A stretch of 64,000 nucleotides of DNA, from assembly GCF_988242995.1 (NCBI RefSeq), contig NZ_OZ547043.1. One strand, 5' to 3'. The position numbers and the translations under genes were made by a program. This document shows, piece after piece, positions 31,838 to 41,197 of this stretch; positions within the stretch are counted from its first letter, which is position 1; the number at the start of each line of letters is the position of its first letter. The notes under the pieces are model-generated. The model worked only from the letters and a program-made list of their open reading frames with translations. It was not told where the DNA came from and searched no databases.

Positions 31838-32522
31838 CGGTCATCATTAAGGTCAAATTTGCAGGCAGACTCTCTTCCAGCACCCGGCGAACATTCGGCC
31901 CGTCGGTACGGTCATAAAAGTCTTCTGCGTCTGCCAGCGATAACCCTCCCGCCAGCTTTCGCCCCACCAGTCGTTCCCGCAACGCAGTAGCTGGCGCGTT
32001 GATAAAGATAGAGAAATCACAAAATTGCGCAAGCTGGCACCACTTCTCGTCGTCCAGCAACAACCAGTTTCCTTCGACGATGACGAGTGGTGCGGTAACG
32101 TGCAGCGCATCTTCAACAGGATCATGCTTTTGTCGATCGTACTGCGGCCACGTACAATCCCCTTCCACGACCTGGCGCAGATTTTCCGCCAGTTTCGCAA
32201 CGTCAAATGTCTCTGGTGCGCCTTTGAAGGGGCGCAATTGATGCGCATCCAGCCAGCTATTGTAATGGTGAAAACCATCCATCGGTAGCGTCTGAATAGC
32301 GGGCAGTTCCGGGTCTTGTTGCGCGATATATTCCCAGAAGGTGGTTAGGGTAGATTTACCCGTCCCCGGCGGAGCGCAAAGAAAAACCACCGTACGCCGC
32401 TGCGGATTTACCGTCTGTAAGGCCGCCAACATGTGCAGCAACGGTTTATGTACATTTTCAATCTCTTCGTTCTGGTACTGTGCCTGTATCTTCAGCCCAT
32501 TCACCGTTAATTCAATTTTCAC
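31809..32522 (-). CDS. yggC: P-loop nucleoside/pantothenate-kinase-like protein YggC, 237 aa
   Basis: Walker A APPGTGKST; matches YggC. Confidence 0.85.
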   Translation of the reverse strand: MKIELTVNGLKIQAQYQNEEIENVHKPLLHMLAALQTVNPQRRTVVFLCAPPGTGKSTLTTFWEYIAQQDPELPAIQTLPMDGFHHYNSWLDAHQLRPFKGAPETFDVAKLAENLRQVVEGDCTWPQYDRQKHDPVEDALHVTAPLVIVEGNWLLLDDEKWCQLAQFCDFSIFINAPATALRERLVGRKLAGGLSLADAEDFYDRTDGPNVRRVLEESLPANLTLMMTATGEYRLVD

Positions 32523-33028
32523 GGCGTTAATTCCTTTAAGGTGGTCGTTACTGCCAGCGTCAGCGCCGTTTTGACCATCCCGCTAAAACGCGCCTCTGAC
32601 CAGACGGCGAAATCGGCGAACTTCATCGCTTTCAATGCGTCATAGAGCGTCGCATTGCGGGTTATACTATTGACGTTGCTGATAAAATCCCAGGTCATGT
32701 CATCGGCAAATCCGGGCGTTTCATCCTGTTCGTTCAGGTAATGCCAGAACTGGGAAAAATGCGTGATATCGGCGTACAGCCATTTATCCATTTTCCCCAG
32801 CGCATAAATCAAACGCAGCGCAACATCAATATCGTCAAGCGGGCCGCTTTGGGCGAGTAACGGCTTCACTGCATATTCCACGATCTCTTCATCGTTATCG
32901 ACAAACAGCGACGGCAGAAACTGGCGTATCCCCTGGAGCAAAATGGTATGCGCAGTTTTCATAAATGAAAATAAATTGTCCTGTGCATCCAGTTGCTCAA
33001 GCACATCATCTTCTGTCAGCGTCGCCAT
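32519..33028 (-). CDS. yggD: YggD (MtlR-like / FumE family), 169 aa
   Basis: MATLTEDDVLEQLDAQDNLFSFMKTAHTILLQGIRQF... matches YggD. Confidence 0.85.
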   Translation of the reverse strand: MATLTEDDVLEQLDAQDNLFSFMKTAHTILLQGIRQFLPSLFVDNDEEIVEYAVKPLLAQSGPLDDIDVALRLIYALGKMDKWLYADITHFSQFWHYLNEQDETPGFADDMTWDFISNVNSITRNATLYDALKAMKFADFAVWSEARFSGMVKTALTLAVTTTLKELTP

Positions 33029-33049
33029 TGGTCTTCCGATAGATCACCA

Positions 33050-34015
33050 TCAATGCAGGGAGTCTATTATATTACACGTTTGGTCCGCGCCGCCGATCAG
33101 TAATGTCTGCGTCCGCACCCCATTCGCCGTCTGTTGGATACCGTTCACCAGCTCACCGCCCGTCACGCCCGTAGCGCTAAAGAGGATATCGTTCCCCCTC
33201 ACCAGTTCATCGAGCGAGTACACACGGTTAACGTCAACGCCCATTGCCTTGCAACGCTTGCGCTCCTGCTCTGCAATCTGCCGATTTTCCGTGTAATCCC
33301 CTTTAGCCTGACAAAAGTCAATCAGCTGGGCCTGCATATCCCCGCCTAATGCTTTAACGGCACAGGCAGAAATCACGCCTTCTGGCGCACCGCCGATGGT
33401 GTACATCACATCGTAAGGATTATCCTGCCAGCAGGTCAGCACGCTGGCGGCGACATCGCCATCCGGCAGAGCGAAAACCTTCACGCCCAGCTGTGTTGCT
33501 TCTTCAATCGCGGCACTCAGGCGCGGTTTATCCAGCGTAACCATGCGCAGCTTGTCCAGCGGTTTGCCTAACGCTTTCGCCACGTTGCGCAGGTTGTCCA
33601 CCAGGGGCAAAGACAGATCAATCGCGCCCGCCGCCAGCCGATTAACAACCAGTTTTTTCATATACATATCGGGAGCGTGTAGCAGGCTGCCTCGTGGGGC
33701 GAAGGCCATGACTGCCAGCGCATTGCTCTGTCCCATCGCCACCATCCGCGTACCTTCAATGGGATCAACCGCGATATCGACTTCTGGCCCATCGCCTTTG
33801 CCCACCTCTTCGCCAATCCACAGCATCGGCGCATGGTCAATCTCTCCCTCGCCGATAACCACTCGCCCACGAAAAGCGACGTCGTTTAATGCCTGGCGCA
33901 TCGCGGTGACCGCCAGGCCATCAATTTTATTTTTGTCGCCACATCCGGTTTGCGGCCAGGCAGCCAACGCTGCCTGTTCCGTAACGCGAAATAATGGCCA
34001 CGCCAGGGACATCAT
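33050..34015 (-). CDS. yggF: Fructose-1,6-bisphosphatase class II (GlpX paralog), 321 aa
   Basis: MMSLAWPLFRVTEQAALAAWPQTGCGDKNKIDGLAV... GlpX family. Confidence 0.9.
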   Translation of the reverse strand: MMSLAWPLFRVTEQAALAAWPQTGCGDKNKIDGLAVTAMRQALNDVAFRGRVVIGEGEIDHAPMLWIGEEVGKGDGPEVDIAVDPIEGTRMVAMGQSNALAVMAFAPRGSLLHAPDMYMKKLVVNRLAAGAIDLSLPLVDNLRNVAKALGKPLDKLRMVTLDKPRLSAAIEEATQLGVKVFALPDGDVAASVLTCWQDNPYDVMYTIGGAPEGVISACAVKALGGDMQAQLIDFCQAKGDYTENRQIAEQERKRCKAMGVDVNRVYSLDELVRGNDILFSATGVTGGELVNGIQQTANGVRTQTLLIGGADQTCNIIDSLH

Positions 34016-35289
34016 TGCGCGGCCTCCCCAATATCAACGCCAAATTGCGCCAGCAGATATTTCTCGGCCTGCTCATTCCAGATGCCGTGCGTTTCCTCAA
34101 CCAGCCGCGCCAGCTCTTTAAACAGCGGATCGGTTTTGCCTTTTTCGGCAAAATCGGCAATGGCAGTGAGCGGCATGGTCACGCCGTTATAAATGAGTTT
34201 TTTACCGCCTGGGATATCCGGCAGATTGAGCACGGTTTCTGGCACCGCATCCAGGCCACCAATATGGGTCACCATAAACGACGGCTGTAACTGTCCCGTA
34301 GCGCTAAGGGTAATCGCCTCTTTCATGTCGTCCGTTGAACCGCCGGATGTACCGACGACGTGCGTGCTGTTGTAATGGACGTTGTAGAAATTAAACGGCA
34401 CTTTGAAGTTTTTATCCGTCGGCCCGGCAAAGAAGTTCAGGCAGCCATCTTCCGCCAGTAATTCGTCAGCCATCTCAACGACAGCAGGCACCGCCGCATA
34501 AACAAAAATGTCATCGAACCCGGCATCTCCTGTAAGCGCCCGCAGCATCTGTACCGGATCGCTCATCCCTTTGGTATTCACATACACCAGCTCAATGCCT
34601 TTACTGGCCGCCAGCTCCACCGGCAGCAGCTTCTGTACCTGCGCCAGGCGTTTGTCGTCGATATCGACCACCACCACCCGCGACGGTTGTATGCCGCCGT
34701 TAATGGCGTAATCGATAGCGCCAATGCCCATTGGGCCAGCACACGCCAGCAGTGCAATATTGCCGCCAGGTTTAACGCCCATGCGATGCTCATAAACATA
34801 TTGCGTGGTGTGATAATTGGCATGATAAGCGCCAATAATGCAGCACATAGGCTCTGCCAGCGACGCCGCAGCAAAATAAGAGCCGTGATAGGGTAATACG
34901 CAGCCCAAATTAATGGCGATTTCGGGAATAATCATATAGGTGGCGTTACCGCCAAAATATTCGTAGCTGTAGCCCGCTGAATATCCGCTTGGTAACCCCA
35001 TCGCCGGTTGCAATACAAAACGCTGGCCTTTTTTATATTTGCCAGTGAGATTTTTACCCACTTCGACAATAACCCCGGCACATTCATGCCCGGTAATGAC
35101 CGGATGATTTTCTAAATCGTCGGGTACGCGTTTATGTTCACTACCGAGTAACGCCGCTTTCCAGGTGGATAAACAGACGCTGTCAGAAATTACACTCACC
35201 AGCAGTTCATTATCGGTAATTTCTGGCAGTTCAAATTCGCGCAGACGGACATCCCGCTTGCCATAAATAGCAGCAACTTTGGTTTTCAT
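34012..35289 (-). CDS. yggP: Zinc-dependent sugar-phosphate/polyol dehydrogenase (MDR family), 425 aa, intact
   Basis: GHECAG zinc-binding motif; matches YggP; overlaps the yggF start by 4 nt. Confidence 0.85.
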   Translation of the reverse strand: MKTKVAAIYGKRDVRLREFELPEITDNELLVSVISDSVCLSTWKAALLGSEHKRVPDDLENHPVITGHECAGVIVEVGKNLTGKYKKGQRFVLQPAMGLPSGYSAGYSYEYFGGNATYMIIPEIAINLGCVLPYHGSYFAAASLAEPMCCIIGAYHANYHTTQYVYEHRMGVKPGGNIALLACAGPMGIGAIDYAINGGIQPSRVVVVDIDDKRLAQVQKLLPVELAASKGIELVYVNTKGMSDPVQMLRALTGDAGFDDIFVYAAVPAVVEMADELLAEDGCLNFFAGPTDKNFKVPFNFYNVHYNSTHVVGTSGGSTDDMKEAITLSATGQLQPSFMVTHIGGLDAVPETVLNLPDIPGGKKLIYNGVTMPLTAIADFAEKGKTDPLFKELARLVEETHGIWNEQAEKYLLAQFGVDIGEAAQ

Positions 35290-35303
35290 TTTTACCTCTG
35301 TAA

Positions 35304-36692
35304 TCAGTGTTTATGTTCTGCGGTTAATTGATTAAATAAAGTGTCGAGTTTTGGATCGCCAATATAGTTATTAATCAATATCAGTGATTTATCCGTCACA
35401 CGTTTCACGCGCCCTTCCAGACTGGCATGAGTAACAACGATATCCGCATCCGCAGGCACGTTTTCTATCGCGTAATGTTTTACTTCAATTGCCAGCCCCG
35501 CTTTTTCCAGACGTTTACGGAAGGTGGTTGCGCCCATCGCGCTGGAGCCCATCCCCGCATCGCAAACAAAAGCGATACGCTTAACCCGGCTTAACGAGAA
35601 TGCACCCTCTTGTTTCATCGCCTTAACCGCATTGGCTGACTGAGCAAACTCATCTTCGTTCTCCGTTTCCACCGTTTTTTCCATCTTCAGTATCAGCGAA
35701 GTGATAGCAAAGGACACCAGGGTACCTACCGTAACACCAGCAATTGTCGCCAGGAATGAGCCTTTCGGCGTCAGCGCCAGGTAAGCAAAGATAGACCCCG
35801 GACTTGGGCCAGCCACCAGACCACCGTCCAGTAAGTTAAACATCCAGGTGCCAGACATACCGCCCGCAATCATGGCAATAATGGTCAGCGGCTTCATCAG
35901 CACATATGGGAAATACAGTTCGTGGATACCGCCGAGGAAGTGAATAATCATCGCCCCGGGCGCAGAACGTTTACTCATCCCTTTACCAAACAAGGTAAAC
36001 GCCAGCAGCAGCCCTAATCCAGGCCCAGGATTGGACGCCACCATAAAGAAGATAGATTTACCGTTAACCGAAGCCTGTTGCATTCCCAGCGGATAATAGA
36101 CGCCCTGATCGATCGCATTATTGAGGAAAAGCACTTTCGCCGGTTCATTGATGACTGACAGCAGAGGCAGATAACCCGCATGTACCAGCGCCTCGATACA
36201 CTCTTTGACGAAAGTATTGGCAATTAACACCGCCGGGCCGATAACTTCAAAACCCAGCAGACAAAGGAGCATCCCCGCGATACCTAATGAGAAGTTATTG
36301 ATAACCATCTCAAAACCGGCAGGTATGCGTTTTTCCAGCGCCTTGTCGATATATTTAATCACCAGACCACCGAGCGGCCCCATAATCATCGAGCCAAGGA
36401 ACATCGGGATTTCAGCGCCGACGATCACACCAATCGTACCAATTCCGCCCATGACCGCGCCGCGTTTGCCGCCGATCAGATGACCACCAGTAGAACCAAT
36501 CATCACGGGTAATAAATAGGTAATCATCGGACCGACAATTTTGGCGAAATGTTCATTCGGCAGCCAACCGGTGGGAATAAATAACGCAGTTATAAAGCCC
36601 CAGGCAATAAAAGCACCGATATTGGGGATGACCATTGCCGTCAAAAAACCCCCAAAAGCCTGGACCTTTGCACGAGCAGACTTGTTTTCCAT
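35304..36692 (-). CDS. cmtA: PTS mannitol-family EIICB component, 462 aa
   Basis: MENKSARAKVQAFGGFLTAMVIPNIGAFIAWGF... matches CmtA. Confidence 0.9.
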   Translation of the reverse strand: MENKSARAKVQAFGGFLTAMVIPNIGAFIAWGFITALFIPTGWLPNEHFAKIVGPMITYLLPVMIGSTGGHLIGGKRGAVMGGIGTIGVIVGAEIPMFLGSMIMGPLGGLVIKYIDKALEKRIPAGFEMVINNFSLGIAGMLLCLLGFEVIGPAVLIANTFVKECIEALVHAGYLPLLSVINEPAKVLFLNNAIDQGVYYPLGMQQASVNGKSIFFMVASNPGPGLGLLLAFTLFGKGMSKRSAPGAMIIHFLGGIHELYFPYVLMKPLTIIAMIAGGMSGTWMFNLLDGGLVAGPSPGSIFAYLALTPKGSFLATIAGVTVGTLVSFAITSLILKMEKTVETENEDEFAQSANAVKAMKQEGAFSLSRVKRIAFVCDAGMGSSAMGATTFRKRLEKAGLAIEVKHYAIENVPADADIVVTHASLEGRVKRVTDKSLILINNYIGDPKLDTLFNQLTAEHKH

Positions 36693-36719
36693 AATATTAT
36701 CCTGTAGAGGAGAGAGTCA

Positions 36720-37163
36720 TTATCCGCGGCTGATAATGTCCGCTAATTGTTTTTCTGATGATGCTGTTAAGAGTTGTTCGAGTATTTCTTCTTCGCTCAG
36801 TAATTCACTTAACGCCTGAATAGCGCCAATGTGCGAATCGGCATCGGCAGCAGAAAGGCCGATGAGTAATTTTATCGGTTCGTCATTCCCCGGAAAATAA
36901 ACGCCTTGTTTAAGTAACGTTAAAGACATCCCGGTTTTAAGCGCCCCACATTCCGGTCGAGCATGAGGCATTGCCACGCCTGGTGCGAGAATATAGTAAG
37001 GGCCATTACTCATGGTGGAATATTTAATAGCCTGAATGTAATTCTCGCTGATATAGTTTTTATCCAGCAATGATGCCATCGAGAAATCGATAGCTTCCTG
37101 CCAATCTTTTGCTGAATGTATAACTGAGATTGATGATTCTGGAAAATAATCAATAAGCCGCAT
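36720..37163 (-). CDS. cmtB: PTS mannitol-family EIIA component, 147 aa
   Basis: MRLIDYFPESSISVIHSAKDWQEAIDFSMASLL... matches CmtB. Confidence 0.9.
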   Translation of the reverse strand: MRLIDYFPESSISVIHSAKDWQEAIDFSMASLLDKNYISENYIQAIKYSTMSNGPYYILAPGVAMPHARPECGALKTGMSLTLLKQGVYFPGNDEPIKLLIGLSAADADSHIGAIQALSELLSEEEILEQLLTASSEKQLADIISRG

Positions 37164-37540
37164 AAATTATCCTTATTTTATTTTTAGGGTACCGTCCGGC
37201 GGTAAAAATAAAATACTCGTGCGGTTTAATGAAAGCAATTGGGTACGCGAGAAGAAAAACCCCATGAGCCAAAATAATAAAACTTTAAATAACAACAACA
37301 TGAAATCAATAATTACAAAGTCAACTTTGTATTTGTTATGTTTATCACAAAATCAACATTTTGTTTGTTATTGTATTTTTGATGCATATCGCCATTTATT
37401 TATTGAATGTCCGAAAACATACTTTTTTTAATGCAATGTTTTTTCGCTATACCCCTTTATAGATTCTGAATTCTCACCTGTCGGCTATTTTCTCCTCACC
37501 TCATGTGACATATTCCCCACTTTACTCAAGGAAGATTCAT

Positions 37541-38449
37541 ATGAAAGCACCTGTTTCAATAACCTCATTTCGCCCACAAAAATCTATTGCTATCGTCATT
37601 GGCGTGCTTGCCGTGGTTGTGCTGCCATTTCTCTCGTATTACACCGTTAATGAAGGTGAACGCGGCATTTTGCTGCGCTACGGAAAAATCGTAAAAGTTG
37701 CCGAGCCGGGTCTGGGTTTTAAAATCCCTTTTATGGAAAGCGTGGAGAAAATTTCCACGCGTAATCAGGCTGTGGTTTATCAGGGATTACAGGCCTACAG
37801 CCGCGACCAGCAACCGGCACAAATGACAGTATCAGTCAGCTTCCACATTAAACCTTCAGAAGCTGGCGCAGTTTATACAACCTACAACACCATTGAATCT
37901 TTAAAAGAGCGTCTGATCGTCCGCCAGCTGCCAACCCAACTGGAGAACGTTTTCGGGCAATATACAGCCATCAGCGCGGTACAGGATCGTACAAAACTGG
38001 TTCAGGATCTGCAAAATGCAATGCGTAAAGCCGTTGTTGGCCCGGTGGTGATTGATGGTGTTCAGATTGAAAATATTGATTTTTCTGACGCTTATGAAAA
38101 ATCGATTGAAGATCGAATGAAAGCAGAAGTCGCCATTGCCACACGTAAGCAAAATCTGGAAACAGAGAAAATCCAGGCGCAAATAGCGGTAACTCAGGCC
38201 CAGGCAGAAGCAGACAGTAAACTGGCGGCAGCCAAAGCAGAAGCTGAGACTATTCGCGTAAGAGGCGCGGCAGAGGCTGAAACTATTCGTTTAAAAAGTG
38301 CGGCTGAAGCAGAAGCGATCCGCCTGCGCGGTGAAGCTCTGCGGGATAATCCCGGACTTGTTGCCCTCACCACTGCTGAGCGTTGGGACGGTAAGCTACC
38401 CGATACCATGATCCCCGGCAGTACAGTTCCGTTTATCTCTACTAAGTAA
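37541..38449 (+). CDS. SPFH/band-7 (prohibitin/HflC-like) membrane protein with an Ala/Glu-rich repeat tail, 302 aa
   Basis: AAGGAAG Shine-Dalgarno before the ATG; N-terminal TM helix; SPFH core (YTVNEGERGILLRYGK...); C-terminal AEAETIR-type repeats. Confidence 0.7.
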   Translation: MKAPVSITSFRPQKSIAIVIGVLAVVVLPFLSYYTVNEGERGILLRYGKIVKVAEPGLGFKIPFMESVEKISTRNQAVVYQGLQAYSRDQQPAQMTVSVSFHIKPSEAGAVYTTYNTIESLKERLIVRQLPTQLENVFGQYTAISAVQDRTKLVQDLQNAMRKAVVGPVVIDGVQIENIDFSDAYEKSIEDRMKAEVAIATRKQNLETEKIQAQIAVTQAQAEADSKLAAAKAEAETIRVRGAAEAETIRLKSAAEAEAIRLRGEALRDNPGLVALTTAERWDGKLPDTMIPGSTVPFISTK

Positions 38450-39155
38450 TAAATATCCTCCGGCATAGCCGGAGGTTTTTCAAATGCGCCTATAAGGCTC
38501 TCTTACCAGCCGCGCCCTAACAGGCGCACACGATCTGACATTTGCATCCAACTTCGTTACTTACGGCCCGTAAACGGGCTGCCCGGATAGGGAATCGATA
38601 ACTGCTCTCCCATTTTATCCTCTTCAAGCTGGTGCTTTATGTAATCCTGTATCTTCGCCGTGTTCTTACCCACTGTATCGACGTAGTACCCTCTGCACCA
38701 GAACTCCCTGTTCCTGTATTTGAATTTCAAATCACCAAACTGCTCGTAAAGCATCAGACTGCTTTTCCCTTTCAGATATCCCATAAACCCGGATACGCTC
38801 ATTTTGGGCGGGATCTCCACAAGCATATGGATATGATCTGCACAGCATTCAGCTTCCAGAATCCGTACGCTTTTCCACTCACACAGCTTTCTCAAAATAC
38901 TGCCTATTGCTCTACGCTTCTCTCTGTAGAACACCTGTCTTCGGTATTTTGGCGCAAAAACTATGTGATATTTACAGTTCCATCGGGTGTGCGCTAAGCT
39001 CTTTTCGTTCCCCATTGGGACCCCCTTTTGATTTCTTGTTTGACACTTGCAGTTGCCAGACCGCAAGGTGTTTTAACAAATCAAAAGGGGTTTTAATAAC
39101 TGGCTCAAAGCTGAAAGCTTTCCGGAACCCCCAGCCTAGCTGGGGGTTTTCTGTG
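38450..39155 (-). mobile_element. IS200 insertion sequence (IS200/IS605 family), about 0.7 kb, boundaries approximate
   Basis: Complete Y1/HUH transposase gene; GC-rich subterminal hairpins at both ends (cccccagcctagctggggg 39128-39146 and cctccggcatagccggagg 38456-38474). Confidence 0.6.
38557..39015 (-). CDS. tnpA: IS200 transposase TnpA (Y1 HUH transposase), 152 aa
   Basis: MGNEKSLAHTRWNCKYHIVFAPKYRRQVFY...HIHMLVEIPP... matches IS200 TnpA. Confidence 0.9.
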   Translation of the reverse strand: MGNEKSLAHTRWNCKYHIVFAPKYRRQVFYREKRRAIGSILRKLCEWKSVRILEAECCADHIHMLVEIPPKMSVSGFMGYLKGKSSLMLYEQFGDLKFKYRNREFWCRGYYVDTVGKNTAKIQDYIKHQLEEDKMGEQLSIPYPGSPFTGRK

Positions 39156-39158
39156 CAC

Positions 39159-39183
39159 AAAAAAAGGGCCGCTTTCGCGGCCC
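39159..39183 (-). terminator. Intrinsic terminator downstream of tktA
   Basis: gggccgcgaaagcggccc hairpin followed by a 7-T run on the minus strand. Confidence 0.75.
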
Positions 39184-39205
39184 TTCTCACAAAGCATCTT
39201 ACCGA

Positions 39206-41197
39206 TTACAGCAGTTCTTTTGCTTTCGCAACAACGTTGTCAACGGTGAAGCCGAACTCTTCAAACAGCAGTTCTGCCGGGGCAGACTCACCGAAGGTGG
39301 TCATGCCGACGATAGCACCGTTCAGGCCAACATACTTGTACCAGTAGTCAGCAATACCCGCTTCTACCGCAACGCGTGCAGTAACCGCTTTCGGCAGTAC
39401 GGATTCACGGTAAGCCGCATCCTGCTTGTCGAATGCATCGGTAGACGGCATGGAAACCACGCGCGCCTTCACGCCTTCGGCAGTCAGTTTTTCGTAGGCA
39501 GCGACAGCCAGTTCAACTTCAGAACCGGTAGCGATGAAGATCAGTTCCGGCTGGCCGGCACAGTCTTTCAGCACATAACCACCGCGCGCGATGTTTGCCA
39601 GCTGCTCTTCAGTACGCTCCTGCTGCGCCAGGTTCTGACGGGAGAGGATAAGCGCAGTCGGGCCGTCCTGACGTTCAACGCCGTATTTCCATGCCACTGC
39701 AGATTCAACCTGGTCACATGGACGCCATGTAGACATGTTCGGGGTCACGCGCAGAGAAGCAACCTGCTCTACCGGCTGGTGAGTCGGGCCATCTTCGCCC
39801 AGACCGATGGAGTCGTGGGTGTAAACCATCACCTGACGCTGTTTCATCAGCGCAGCCATACGTACGGCGTTACGTGCGTATTCCACGAACATCAGGAAGG
39901 TGGAGGTGTACGGCAGGAAGCCACCGTGCAGGGAGATACCGTTAGCAATCGCGGTCATACCGAACTCGCGAACACCGTAGTGGATGTAGTTACCCGCAGC
40001 ATCTTCGTTGATTGCTTTAGAACCAGACCACAGGGTCAGGTTAGACGGTGCCAGGTCAGCAGAGCCGCCGAGGAATTCCGGCAACAGCGGACCGAACGCT
40101 TCAATCGCATTCTGAGACGCTTTACGGCTGGCGATTTTCGCCGGGTTAGCCTGCAGTTTAGCGATGAACTCTTTCGCTTTAGCGTCGAAGTCAGACGGCA
40201 TTTCGCCTTTCATACGGCGGGTAAATTCAGCGGCTTCCTGCGGATAAGCTTTCGCGTAAGCTGCGAATTTCTCGTTCCATGCGGATTCTTTCGCCTGGCC
40301 TGCTTCTTTCGCATCCCACTGAGCATAGATTTCAGACGGGATTTCGAACGGTGCATATTTCCAGCCCAGCTGTTCGCGGGTCAGGGCGATTTCAGCGTCG
40401 CCCAGCGGCGCACCGTGGGAGTCGTGCGTACCGGCTTTGTTCGGTGAACCGAAACCGATGATGGTTTTGCACATCAGCAGGGACGGTTTGTCAGTCACTG
40501 CGCGCGCTTCTTCTACTGCGCGTTTGATGGATGCCGCGTCATGACCGTCGATGCCGCGAATAACGTGCCAGCCGTAAGCTTCGAAACGCATTGCGGTGTC
40601 GTCGGTGAACCAGCCTTCAACGTGACCATCGATAGAGATACCGTTGTCATCGTAGAACGCAATCAGTTTACCCAGCTTCAGCGTACCCGCCAGAGAGCAA
40701 ACTTCGTGGGAGATGCCTTCCATCATGCAGCCGTCGCCCATGAAGGCGTAGGTGTAGTGGTCGACGATGTCGTGGCCCGGACGGTTAAACTGCGCCGCCA
40801 GCGTTTTTTCTGCAATCGCCATACCGACTGCGTTGGCAATACCCTGACCCAGCGGACCAGTAGTGGTTTCCACACCAGCGGTGTAACCCACTTCCGGGTG
40901 ACCCGGAGTTTTAGAGTGCAGCTGACGGAAGTTTTTCAGTTCTTCCATCGGCAGATCGTAACCGGTGAGGTGCAGCAGGCTGTAGATCAGCATGGAGCCG
41001 TGGCCGTTGGACAGCACGAAGCGGTCACGGTCAGCCCAGGACGGATTCTGCGGGTTGTGTTTCAGGAAATCACGCCACAGGACTTCGGCAATGTCAGCCA
41101 TACCCATAGGGGCACCCGGGTGACCGGATTTGGCTTTCTGTACTGCGTCCATGCTCAGCGCACGAATAGCATTGGCAAGCTCTTTACGTGAGGACAT
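39206..41197 (-). CDS. tktA: Transketolase 1, 663 aa
   Basis: [41 protein letters not shown]... matches TktA. Confidence 0.95.

Follow-up and report, generated by a model that had tools for sequence, protein, structure and literature searches.

The window analyzed here, that is, the whole 64,000-nucleotide (64-kb) stretch of Escherichia coli DNA, was confirmed to carry an ordinary, intact copy of a known insertion sequence, IS200C (IS200/IS605 family, IS200 group), which is already annotated in RefSeq and occupies a position typical of the element. Very likely, the complete element inserted into the intrinsic terminator of tkt at the distal end of the T-tract, with the transposase gene pointing in the same direction as tkt. 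This placement at the tkt terminator is no coincidence: IS200C was compared at 14 distinct E. coli loci, and at all 14 its left end was found to lie directly after a GC hairpin and T-run belonging to a co-oriented upstream gene. For the window itself the importance is small, the element being known and both neighboring genes and the tkt terminator being intact. The strict association with terminator tails, together with its possible explanation by an AAAA guide, is the sole point worth following up.

Identity and ends of the IS200C copy

E. coli H1827/12 (NZ_CP013031) and a further dozen records carry positions 38440-39165, both junctions included, with 100% identity. In NZ_CP013031, the genes run in the order cmtA, cmtB, SPFH (coding for a prohibitin family protein), tnpA of IS200C, tkt, loiP, and speB, and the PGAP label for the identical protein in this strain is IS200C family transposase. 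The SPFH gene is convergent with tkt and ends with a TAA stop codon at 38447-38449. An initial, sequence-only reading of this DNA had proposed a complete IS200-type element with an intact TnpA gene, starting directly after the SPFH stop codon and ending shortly before the tkt terminator hairpin. Profile matches, a full-length Rfam match, and the 709-bp span bear out the complete element, and the start at 38450 is upheld by both empty-site and multi-copy comparisons. The placement ahead of the hairpin also holds, with the end, which had been put at 39155, lying 3 bp further on at 39158, where the element adjoins the T7 tract (Table 1).

Table 1. Features of the IS200C copy and its neighbors, in coordinates of the window
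Feature	Coordinates	Strand	Basis and remarks
IS200C	38450..39158	-	Complete, 709 bp (conserved-end comparison); left end 39158 = GTGCACAG..., right end 38450 = ...GGATATTTA
Unassignable AA (TT on minus strand)	38448..38449		2-bp target duplication or last two bases of the element
Right-end hairpin	38457..38475 (IS nt 684-702)		CCTCCGGC-ATA-GCCGGAGG on + strand, then TTTTTC; 51-nt window MFE -15.9 kcal/mol, z -2.8
Left-end hairpin	39128..39146 (IS nt 13-31)		CCCCCAGC-CTA-GCTGGGGG on + strand, then TTTTCTGTG; 51-nt window MFE -22.1 kcal/mol (+)
tnpA, 152-aa Y1 HUH transposase	38557..39015	-	Pfam Y1_Tnp, E 3.8e-38; NCBIfam equivalog transpos_IS200, 147.7 bits (cut-off 55)
STnc490 (Rfam RF01405)	39025..39148	-	Covers the left-end RNA structures of IS200; full-length match (model positions 1-124 of 124), E 3e-31, 146.4 bits vs gathering score 56
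Stem-loop in tnpA 5'UTR hiding Shine-Dalgarno sequence	39021..39090 (IS nt 69-138)	-	Fold; same coordinates as in the map of PMC4513863
Antisense RNA art200, predicted position	39007..39096	+	Inference from PMC4513863
SPFH/Band 7 gene (prohibitin family protein)	37541..38449	+	Pfam Band_7, E 3.5e-30; 909 bp in NZ_CP013031
tkt (transketolase) gene	39206..41197	-	ORF list; annotation of identical record; co-oriented with tnpA
tkt native terminator hairpin	39166..39183	-	GGGCCGC-GAAA-GCGGCCC; 51-nt window -25.1 kcal/mol, z -5.0
T7 tract of tkt intrinsic terminator	39159..39165	-	Insertion target; fully kept beside the left end of the element (empty vs filled site)

When the copies at the 14 loci were compared, the block from GTGCACAG to GGATATTTA was found to be 709 bp long in 13 and 708 bp long in the one at ydgA, and in all 14 it was bordered by ...TT on the left-end side and by TT... 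on the right-end side. The ends themselves, GTGCACAGAAAA... and ...GGAGGATATTTA, form no inverted repeats on direct reading. A truncated or chimeric element, one of two outcomes by which the sequence-only reading would have fallen, is ruled out by the constant span (13/14 copies), the full-length Rfam match, and the intact tnpA; the other, that the end hairpins are native terminators, is contradicted by empty alleles that contain neither of them.

The empty site that had been expected in strains lacking the insertion was recovered in two SPFH-type alleles (L003 and L004) and, for the other type of tkt terminator, in a K-12-type allele (L012). Relative to the empty alleles, the window holds 711 bp of extra DNA, from 38448 to 39158 or, given a 2-bp A/T ambiguity, equally from 38450 to 39160. 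The empty site reads ACTAAGT-A7-GGGCCGC, with the Z226-1 and ETEC6333 alleles reading ...ACTAAG-TAAAAAAA-GGGCCGCTTTCGCGGCCC..., and the filled site in the window reads ACTAAGTAA-(709 bp)-A7-GGGCCGC or, written out, ACTAAGTAA-(TAAATATCC...CTGTGCAC)-AAAAAAAGGGCCGC. The K-12-type empty site, GACCTTTTTTATT/ACCTTG, is matched by the filled site ...TTATT-(709)-TTACCTTG in strain EC-107. Because TT flanks both sides, a 709-bp element with a 2-bp duplication is indistinguishable from a 711-bp element, both in every copy and in the K-12-type pair of empty and filled sites; the exact ends of IS200C are therefore ambiguous, and a TT target duplication would be unexpected in the IS200/IS605 family. The unassignable AA also makes up the second and third positions of the SPFH stop codon, which in the empty alleles overlaps an A-run that is the T-tract of the tkt terminator on the other strand. 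The tkt hairpin is present in L003 and L004, where it lies 5 nt past the SPFH stop codon. The insertion left SPFH (both reading frame and stop codon), the tkt gene, the tkt hairpin, and T7 undamaged.

The matching GC-rich subterminal hairpins that had been described for both ends were also found. Both have 8-bp stems and 3-nt loops, with an A-run ahead of each in element orientation, and in that orientation they align as AAAACC(C/T)CC(A/G)GCTA(G/T)GC(T/C)GG(G/A)GG, with two compensated pairs differing. The right-end hairpin was scored as terminator-like on both strands by a terminator scan: on the + strand, its stem contains 7 GC pairs, begins 7 nt past the SPFH stop codon, and is followed by TTTTT at 38476-38480; on the minus strand, ATATTTATT comes after it, making it the weak terminator of tnpA itself. 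The left-end hairpin is the strong, bidirectional Rho-independent terminator published for IS200 (nts 12-34), at which ~85% of upstream transcripts are terminated (PMC4513863; PMC5435999). The scan missed this hairpin and the tkt terminator because stem extension consumes part of their T-runs, and folds were used instead. Read on the + strand, the tkt hairpin is GGGCCGC-TTTC-GCGGCCC followed by TTCTCAC, with a 51-nt window of -20.6 kcal/mol.

The idea that the two hairpins are the native terminators of SPFH and tkt, with a transposase gene merely lying between them, draws on their resemblance to intrinsic terminators on the + strand, but its probability is vanishingly small: the empty-site alleles contain only a third hairpin (GGGCCGC...GCGGCCC), and both end hairpins accompany IS200C at the 13 other loci, with unchanged distances to its ends. 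The comparison of empty with filled sites rules it out. No further copies or remnants of IS200C were found in the 64-kb window, where each hairpin sequence is present once; for the 19-nt left-end hairpin sequence, unique in the window, the chance expectation was 0.01 matches.

With respect to the neighboring DNA, a full SPFH-plus-tkt match was detected in 1813 of 5426 E. coli genomes (~1/3), the SPFH gene being accessory. Strains of the K-12 type are without SPFH and have another tkt terminator, GGTCGC-TTCG-GCGACC, the two arrangements diverging right at the tkt stop codon. The spacer of ~370 bp between cmtB and the SPFH start (37170-37540) is very AT-rich, a composition that would fit acquired DNA. 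In many other strains, the SPFH-tkt spacer contains one or two REP/BIME units of ~175-190 bp (spans L005:648-854, L006:650-1043, L007:648-866, and L009:1615-1840), each bounded by an extra copy of GGGCCGC-TTTC-GCGGCCC, so that the hairpin has been duplicated along with the unit. A weak match to the Rfam family AaHKsRNA20 at 39154-39221 on the minus strand, covering the tkt stop codon and terminator, was rejected (33 bits against a gathering score of 43, E 0.005) and probably reflects no more than a likeness among terminators.

Transposase gene, RNA structures, and relatives

The copy contains one family-matching ORF, tnpA, and has no room for tnpB. The tnpA product shows the HUH motif DHIHMLV and a catalytic Tyr within an IQDYIKHQ helix, both of which align with the matching segments of solved Y1 transposases; the core of the protein aligns throughout with 2ec2, 2f4f, 2a6m, and 2vhg (E 4e-23 to 4e-19). 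The protein annotated at the window locus, WP_000526135.1, is also the annotated transposase at 9 of the 13 other loci.

With 39158 taken as nt 1, the left hairpin falls at nt 13-31, the stem-loop hiding the Shine-Dalgarno sequence at nt 69-138, the ATG at nt 144, and the right hairpin at nt 684-702. In the published map of IS200, an element of 707-710 bp, the terminator occupies nts 12-34, transcription starts near nt 40, and nts 69-138 form the stem-loop (PMC4513863; 10.1101/2024.06.26.600842); the internal layout of the window copy equals this map. In the fold of nt 69-138, the GGGGG of the Shine-Dalgarno sequence is paired. At the predicted position of art200, folding of the antisense strand gave a long hairpin with GGGGUUUU after it. 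STnc490/art200 is described in the literature as antisense to the tnpA 5'UTR. The Rfam model RF01405 (STnc490) matched only the tnpA-sense strand at 39025-39148, and the model seems to represent the structures of the sense strand.

IS200 of Salmonella enterica and its E. coli isoform IS200C have, like the window copy, a length of ~707-710 bp and a single tnpA, and the left-end terminator, the Shine-Dalgarno-hiding stem-loop, and the STnc490/art200 region occur at equal coordinates (PMC4513863). Nothing of substance sets the window copy apart from these elements, and it is a member of the group. IS1541 of Yersinia pestis and Yersinia pseudotuberculosis is a close relative of IS200 that reaches high copy number (PMC4513863; PMC5435999). 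It differs from IS200C in host and as a sequence variant, the loci compared here being those of E. coli. Odaert et al. reportedly found in 1998 that IS1541 copies lie shortly downstream of co-oriented genes, a placement that resembles that of IS200C at the 14 loci.

The family's mechanistic models are IS608 of Helicobacter pylori and ISDra2, which share with IS200C a Y1 HUH transposase (the IS608 TnpA structures 2a6m and 2vhg align at E of about 4e-19), subterminal hairpins in place of terminal inverted repeats, a left end abutting a short conserved target, and a 4-nt guide 5' of the hairpin feet (PMC5934647). IS608 also carries tnpB and has TTAC as its target, whereas IS200C is without tnpB and its TTTT or TATT flank is always the tail of a hairpin, with a target hairpin forming no part of the IS608 model. 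REP/BIME sequences and their RAYT (TnpA-REP) proteins involve related Y1 enzymes, the window TnpA having a weak match to NCBIfam REP_Tyr_transpos (32 bits, below the cut-off of 80), and REP/BIMEs are, as here, intergenic GC hairpins near the 3' ends of genes, including those in the SPFH-tkt spacer of other strains. The window element differs in being an autonomous insertion sequence with its own ends rather than a REPtron.

Placement at terminator tails and proposed insertion route

The 14 loci comprise six taken from matches that extend into flanks like those of the query and eight spread evenly down the ranking obtained with an internal query. Their upstream genes are tkt (with two terminator types), ybhL, topA, grcA, araE, pheP, guaA, galU, prophage lom, an icd fragment, emrB, carB, and ydgA. 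The upstream hairpins have 45-nt MFE values of -11.6 to -23.3 kcal/mol and are followed by 5-7 T or TTTTTTATT. The tetranucleotide beside the left end is TTTT at 12 of the 14 loci and TATT at the other 2, which fits a short target, and the 3' flank begins with TT at all of them. Orientation and junction are shared by all 14 loci, GTGCAC adjoining a T-run whose last two bases are TT. As a background, 11 of the 61 runs of at least six T in the window (18%) follow a comparably stable hairpin, as do 4 of the 24 outside long ORFs. Since a hairpin and T-run are found at 14 of 14 loci, the "wedged" geometry of the window copy is the normal resting place of IS200C. A recent preprint also reports a strong excess of terminator-like sequences immediately upstream of IS200/IS605 elements (bioRxiv 10.1101/2025.07.22.666184). 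At one of these loci, the topA-cysB spacer of strain FEX669 (L011), the same 18-nt tkt hairpin as in the window, GGGCCGCGAAAGCGGCCC, is located directly downstream of topA, with IS200C at its T-tail.

In IS608, the four bases 5' of each hairpin foot serve as a guide and pair with the tetranucleotide that is cleaved or targeted (GL AAAG with TTAC, GR GAAT with TCAA; PMC5934647). The four bases 5' of both IS200C hairpins are AAAA, with a left-hairpin foot that could be drawn 2 nt further out, and the terminus of the element is TTTA or TATT. By analogy with the IS608 rule, this AAAA would be the guide that specifies a T-rich cleavage or target site, TTTT or TATT, and such an A4 guide reading a T-rich site would explain why the T-tracts of terminators are targets. 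Elements of the IS200/IS605 family insert into the lagging-strand template (PMC5027513), and the copy in the window would have arrived by the single-strand "peel and paste" route of the family. In each of the eight 8-kb bins of the window, the + strand shows a negative GC skew (mean -0.03). Judged by this skew, the minus strand has the sequence of the leading strand, tnpA and tkt are co-directional with the replication fork, and the active (top) strand of IS200C belongs to the lagging-strand template, as expected for the family. The skew dips to -0.094 in the bin 32001-40000, which contains cmtA, cmtB, SPFH, the insertion sequence, and the 3' end of tkt, compared with about -0.02 to -0.03 elsewhere.

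We tentatively propose, as a possibility somewhat short of an even chance, that IS200C uses intrinsic terminators as a landing site, the hairpin and T-tract being exposed on the template of the lagging strand, the AAAA guide reading the T-tract, and the replacement of the terminators making insertions nearly neutral. The target would then resemble the right end of the element, a hairpin followed by ATATTTATT, and terminators facing both ways would restore the displaced terminator function for a convergent gene. Near neutrality of this kind would account for copy numbers that are high even though mobility in the laboratory is very low. Alternatively, insertion might be random within T-rich DNA, with no recognition of terminators or T-tracts, and terminator adjacency might reflect the survival of harmless intergenic insertions. 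Insertions just past a terminator should be the least harmful, and, with laboratory transposition of IS200 being rare, every sampled copy has already passed through selection (PMC4513863). Yet survival as the whole explanation is rather unlikely: orientation and junction are alike at all 14 loci, a stable hairpin precedes only 4 of the 24 T-runs outside long ORFs in the window, and the AAAA before both hairpins fits a T-rich target under the guide rule of the family (PMC5934647). The 14 loci, eight of which have a convergent gene opposite the right end, are compatible with target choice and with survival of harmless insertions alike, and the terminator link could in part come from the latter. 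An AAAA guide with a T-rich target, as in the landing-site proposal, offers a testable rule for an element whose choice of target is hard to study since it rarely moves in the laboratory.

Transcript ends, distribution, and typing value

At the window locus, SPFH transcripts would meet the right-end hairpin and a UUUUU stretch 7 nt past the stop codon and probably end there rather than at the shared tkt hairpin; from its sequence, we judge it somewhat probable that the right-end hairpin with TTTTT now serves as the SPFH terminator, as the sequence-only reading had suggested. Any read-through of SPFH would next encounter the bidirectional terminator at the left end and then the tkt hairpin. Since the tkt hairpin and T7 are untouched, tkt termination should be unchanged, and the left-end hairpin should shield tnpA from tkt read-through. 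A competing view, unlikely though with some weight, is that the right-end hairpin gives no useful SPFH termination and that antisense read-through of tnpA continues to the left-end or the tkt hairpin. The stem comprises only 8 bp, is weaker than the native hairpin (-15.9 vs -20.6 kcal/mol in + strand 51-nt windows), and starts 7 nt past the stop codon, where a terminating ribosome would still cover the RNA; furthermore, one paper calls the native IS200 terminator weaker than the SgrS terminator of its constructs (10.1101/2024.06.26.600842). Against this, seven GC pairs followed by five T on the + strand form the canonical pattern, and the first hairpin past SPFH in empty-site strains, the shared tkt hairpin, has a poorer tail in that direction (TTCTCAC). 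Termination of SPFH at the right-end hairpin may have counterparts elsewhere: a convergent gene faces the right end at 8 of the 14 loci, so an exchange of 3' ends like that of SPFH would recur, and the link of IS200C with T-tracts suggests a systematic swap of the transcript 3' end of the convergent gene for the right-end hairpin of the element.

The SPFH-to-right-end junction was detected in 21 of 5426 E. coli genomes and the left-end-to-tkt junction in 33 of 5426. The extra 12 records show the matching junction profile at the K-12-type tkt terminator; the one examined in sequence (EC-107) confirmed this and is without SPFH, with the other eleven classified by alignment profile. Among SPFH-type carriers, 28-30 of 550 bp at the SPFH 3' end separate the window allele from those of XJ34 and 200164, and only 3 of 550 bp separate XJ34 from the empty allele of Z226-1. 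In addition, a BIME sits between hairpin and tkt in XJ34, and the A-run of 200164 is one base longer. These flank sequences point to at least two insertion events at one T-tract, or to spread by recombination. The earlier argument that rare mobility makes the copy a strain-typing marker is weakened: rare as the junction is (21/5426), it is found with two or more very different flank haplotypes, and IS200C occurs at up to 35 places per genome. Because the flank haplotypes diverge (~5% apart) and the K-12-type terminator is also used, IS200C at this position should not be taken as identity by descent.

Matches to IS200C, at ~10,700 places in all, were found in 3097 of the 5426 genomes and a near-full-length copy in 2056, with a median of 1 and a maximum of 35 places per genome and with near-identical copies. 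This pattern points to recent spread of IS200C in some lineages, despite poor mobility in the laboratory (PMC4513863). It also bears on a rival view of the window copy as an inactive relic that persists only through drift or for its regulatory RNAs (5'tnpA, art200). IS200 has been described as essentially immobile and subject to several layers of repression (PMC4513863; 10.1101/2024.06.26.600842), which would suit a relic; the ORF is nonetheless intact and encodes WP_000526135.1, which is annotated at most of the compared loci, and the near-identical copies at up to 35 places in some genomes speak for recent spread in some lineages, making a relic quite improbable. In addition, IS200C fragments of 100-300 bp were observed on many E. 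coli plasmids (e.g., NZ_CP038382, NZ_CP132978, and NZ_CP172160), some of them adjoining or sitting inside annotations of IS3-family transposases.
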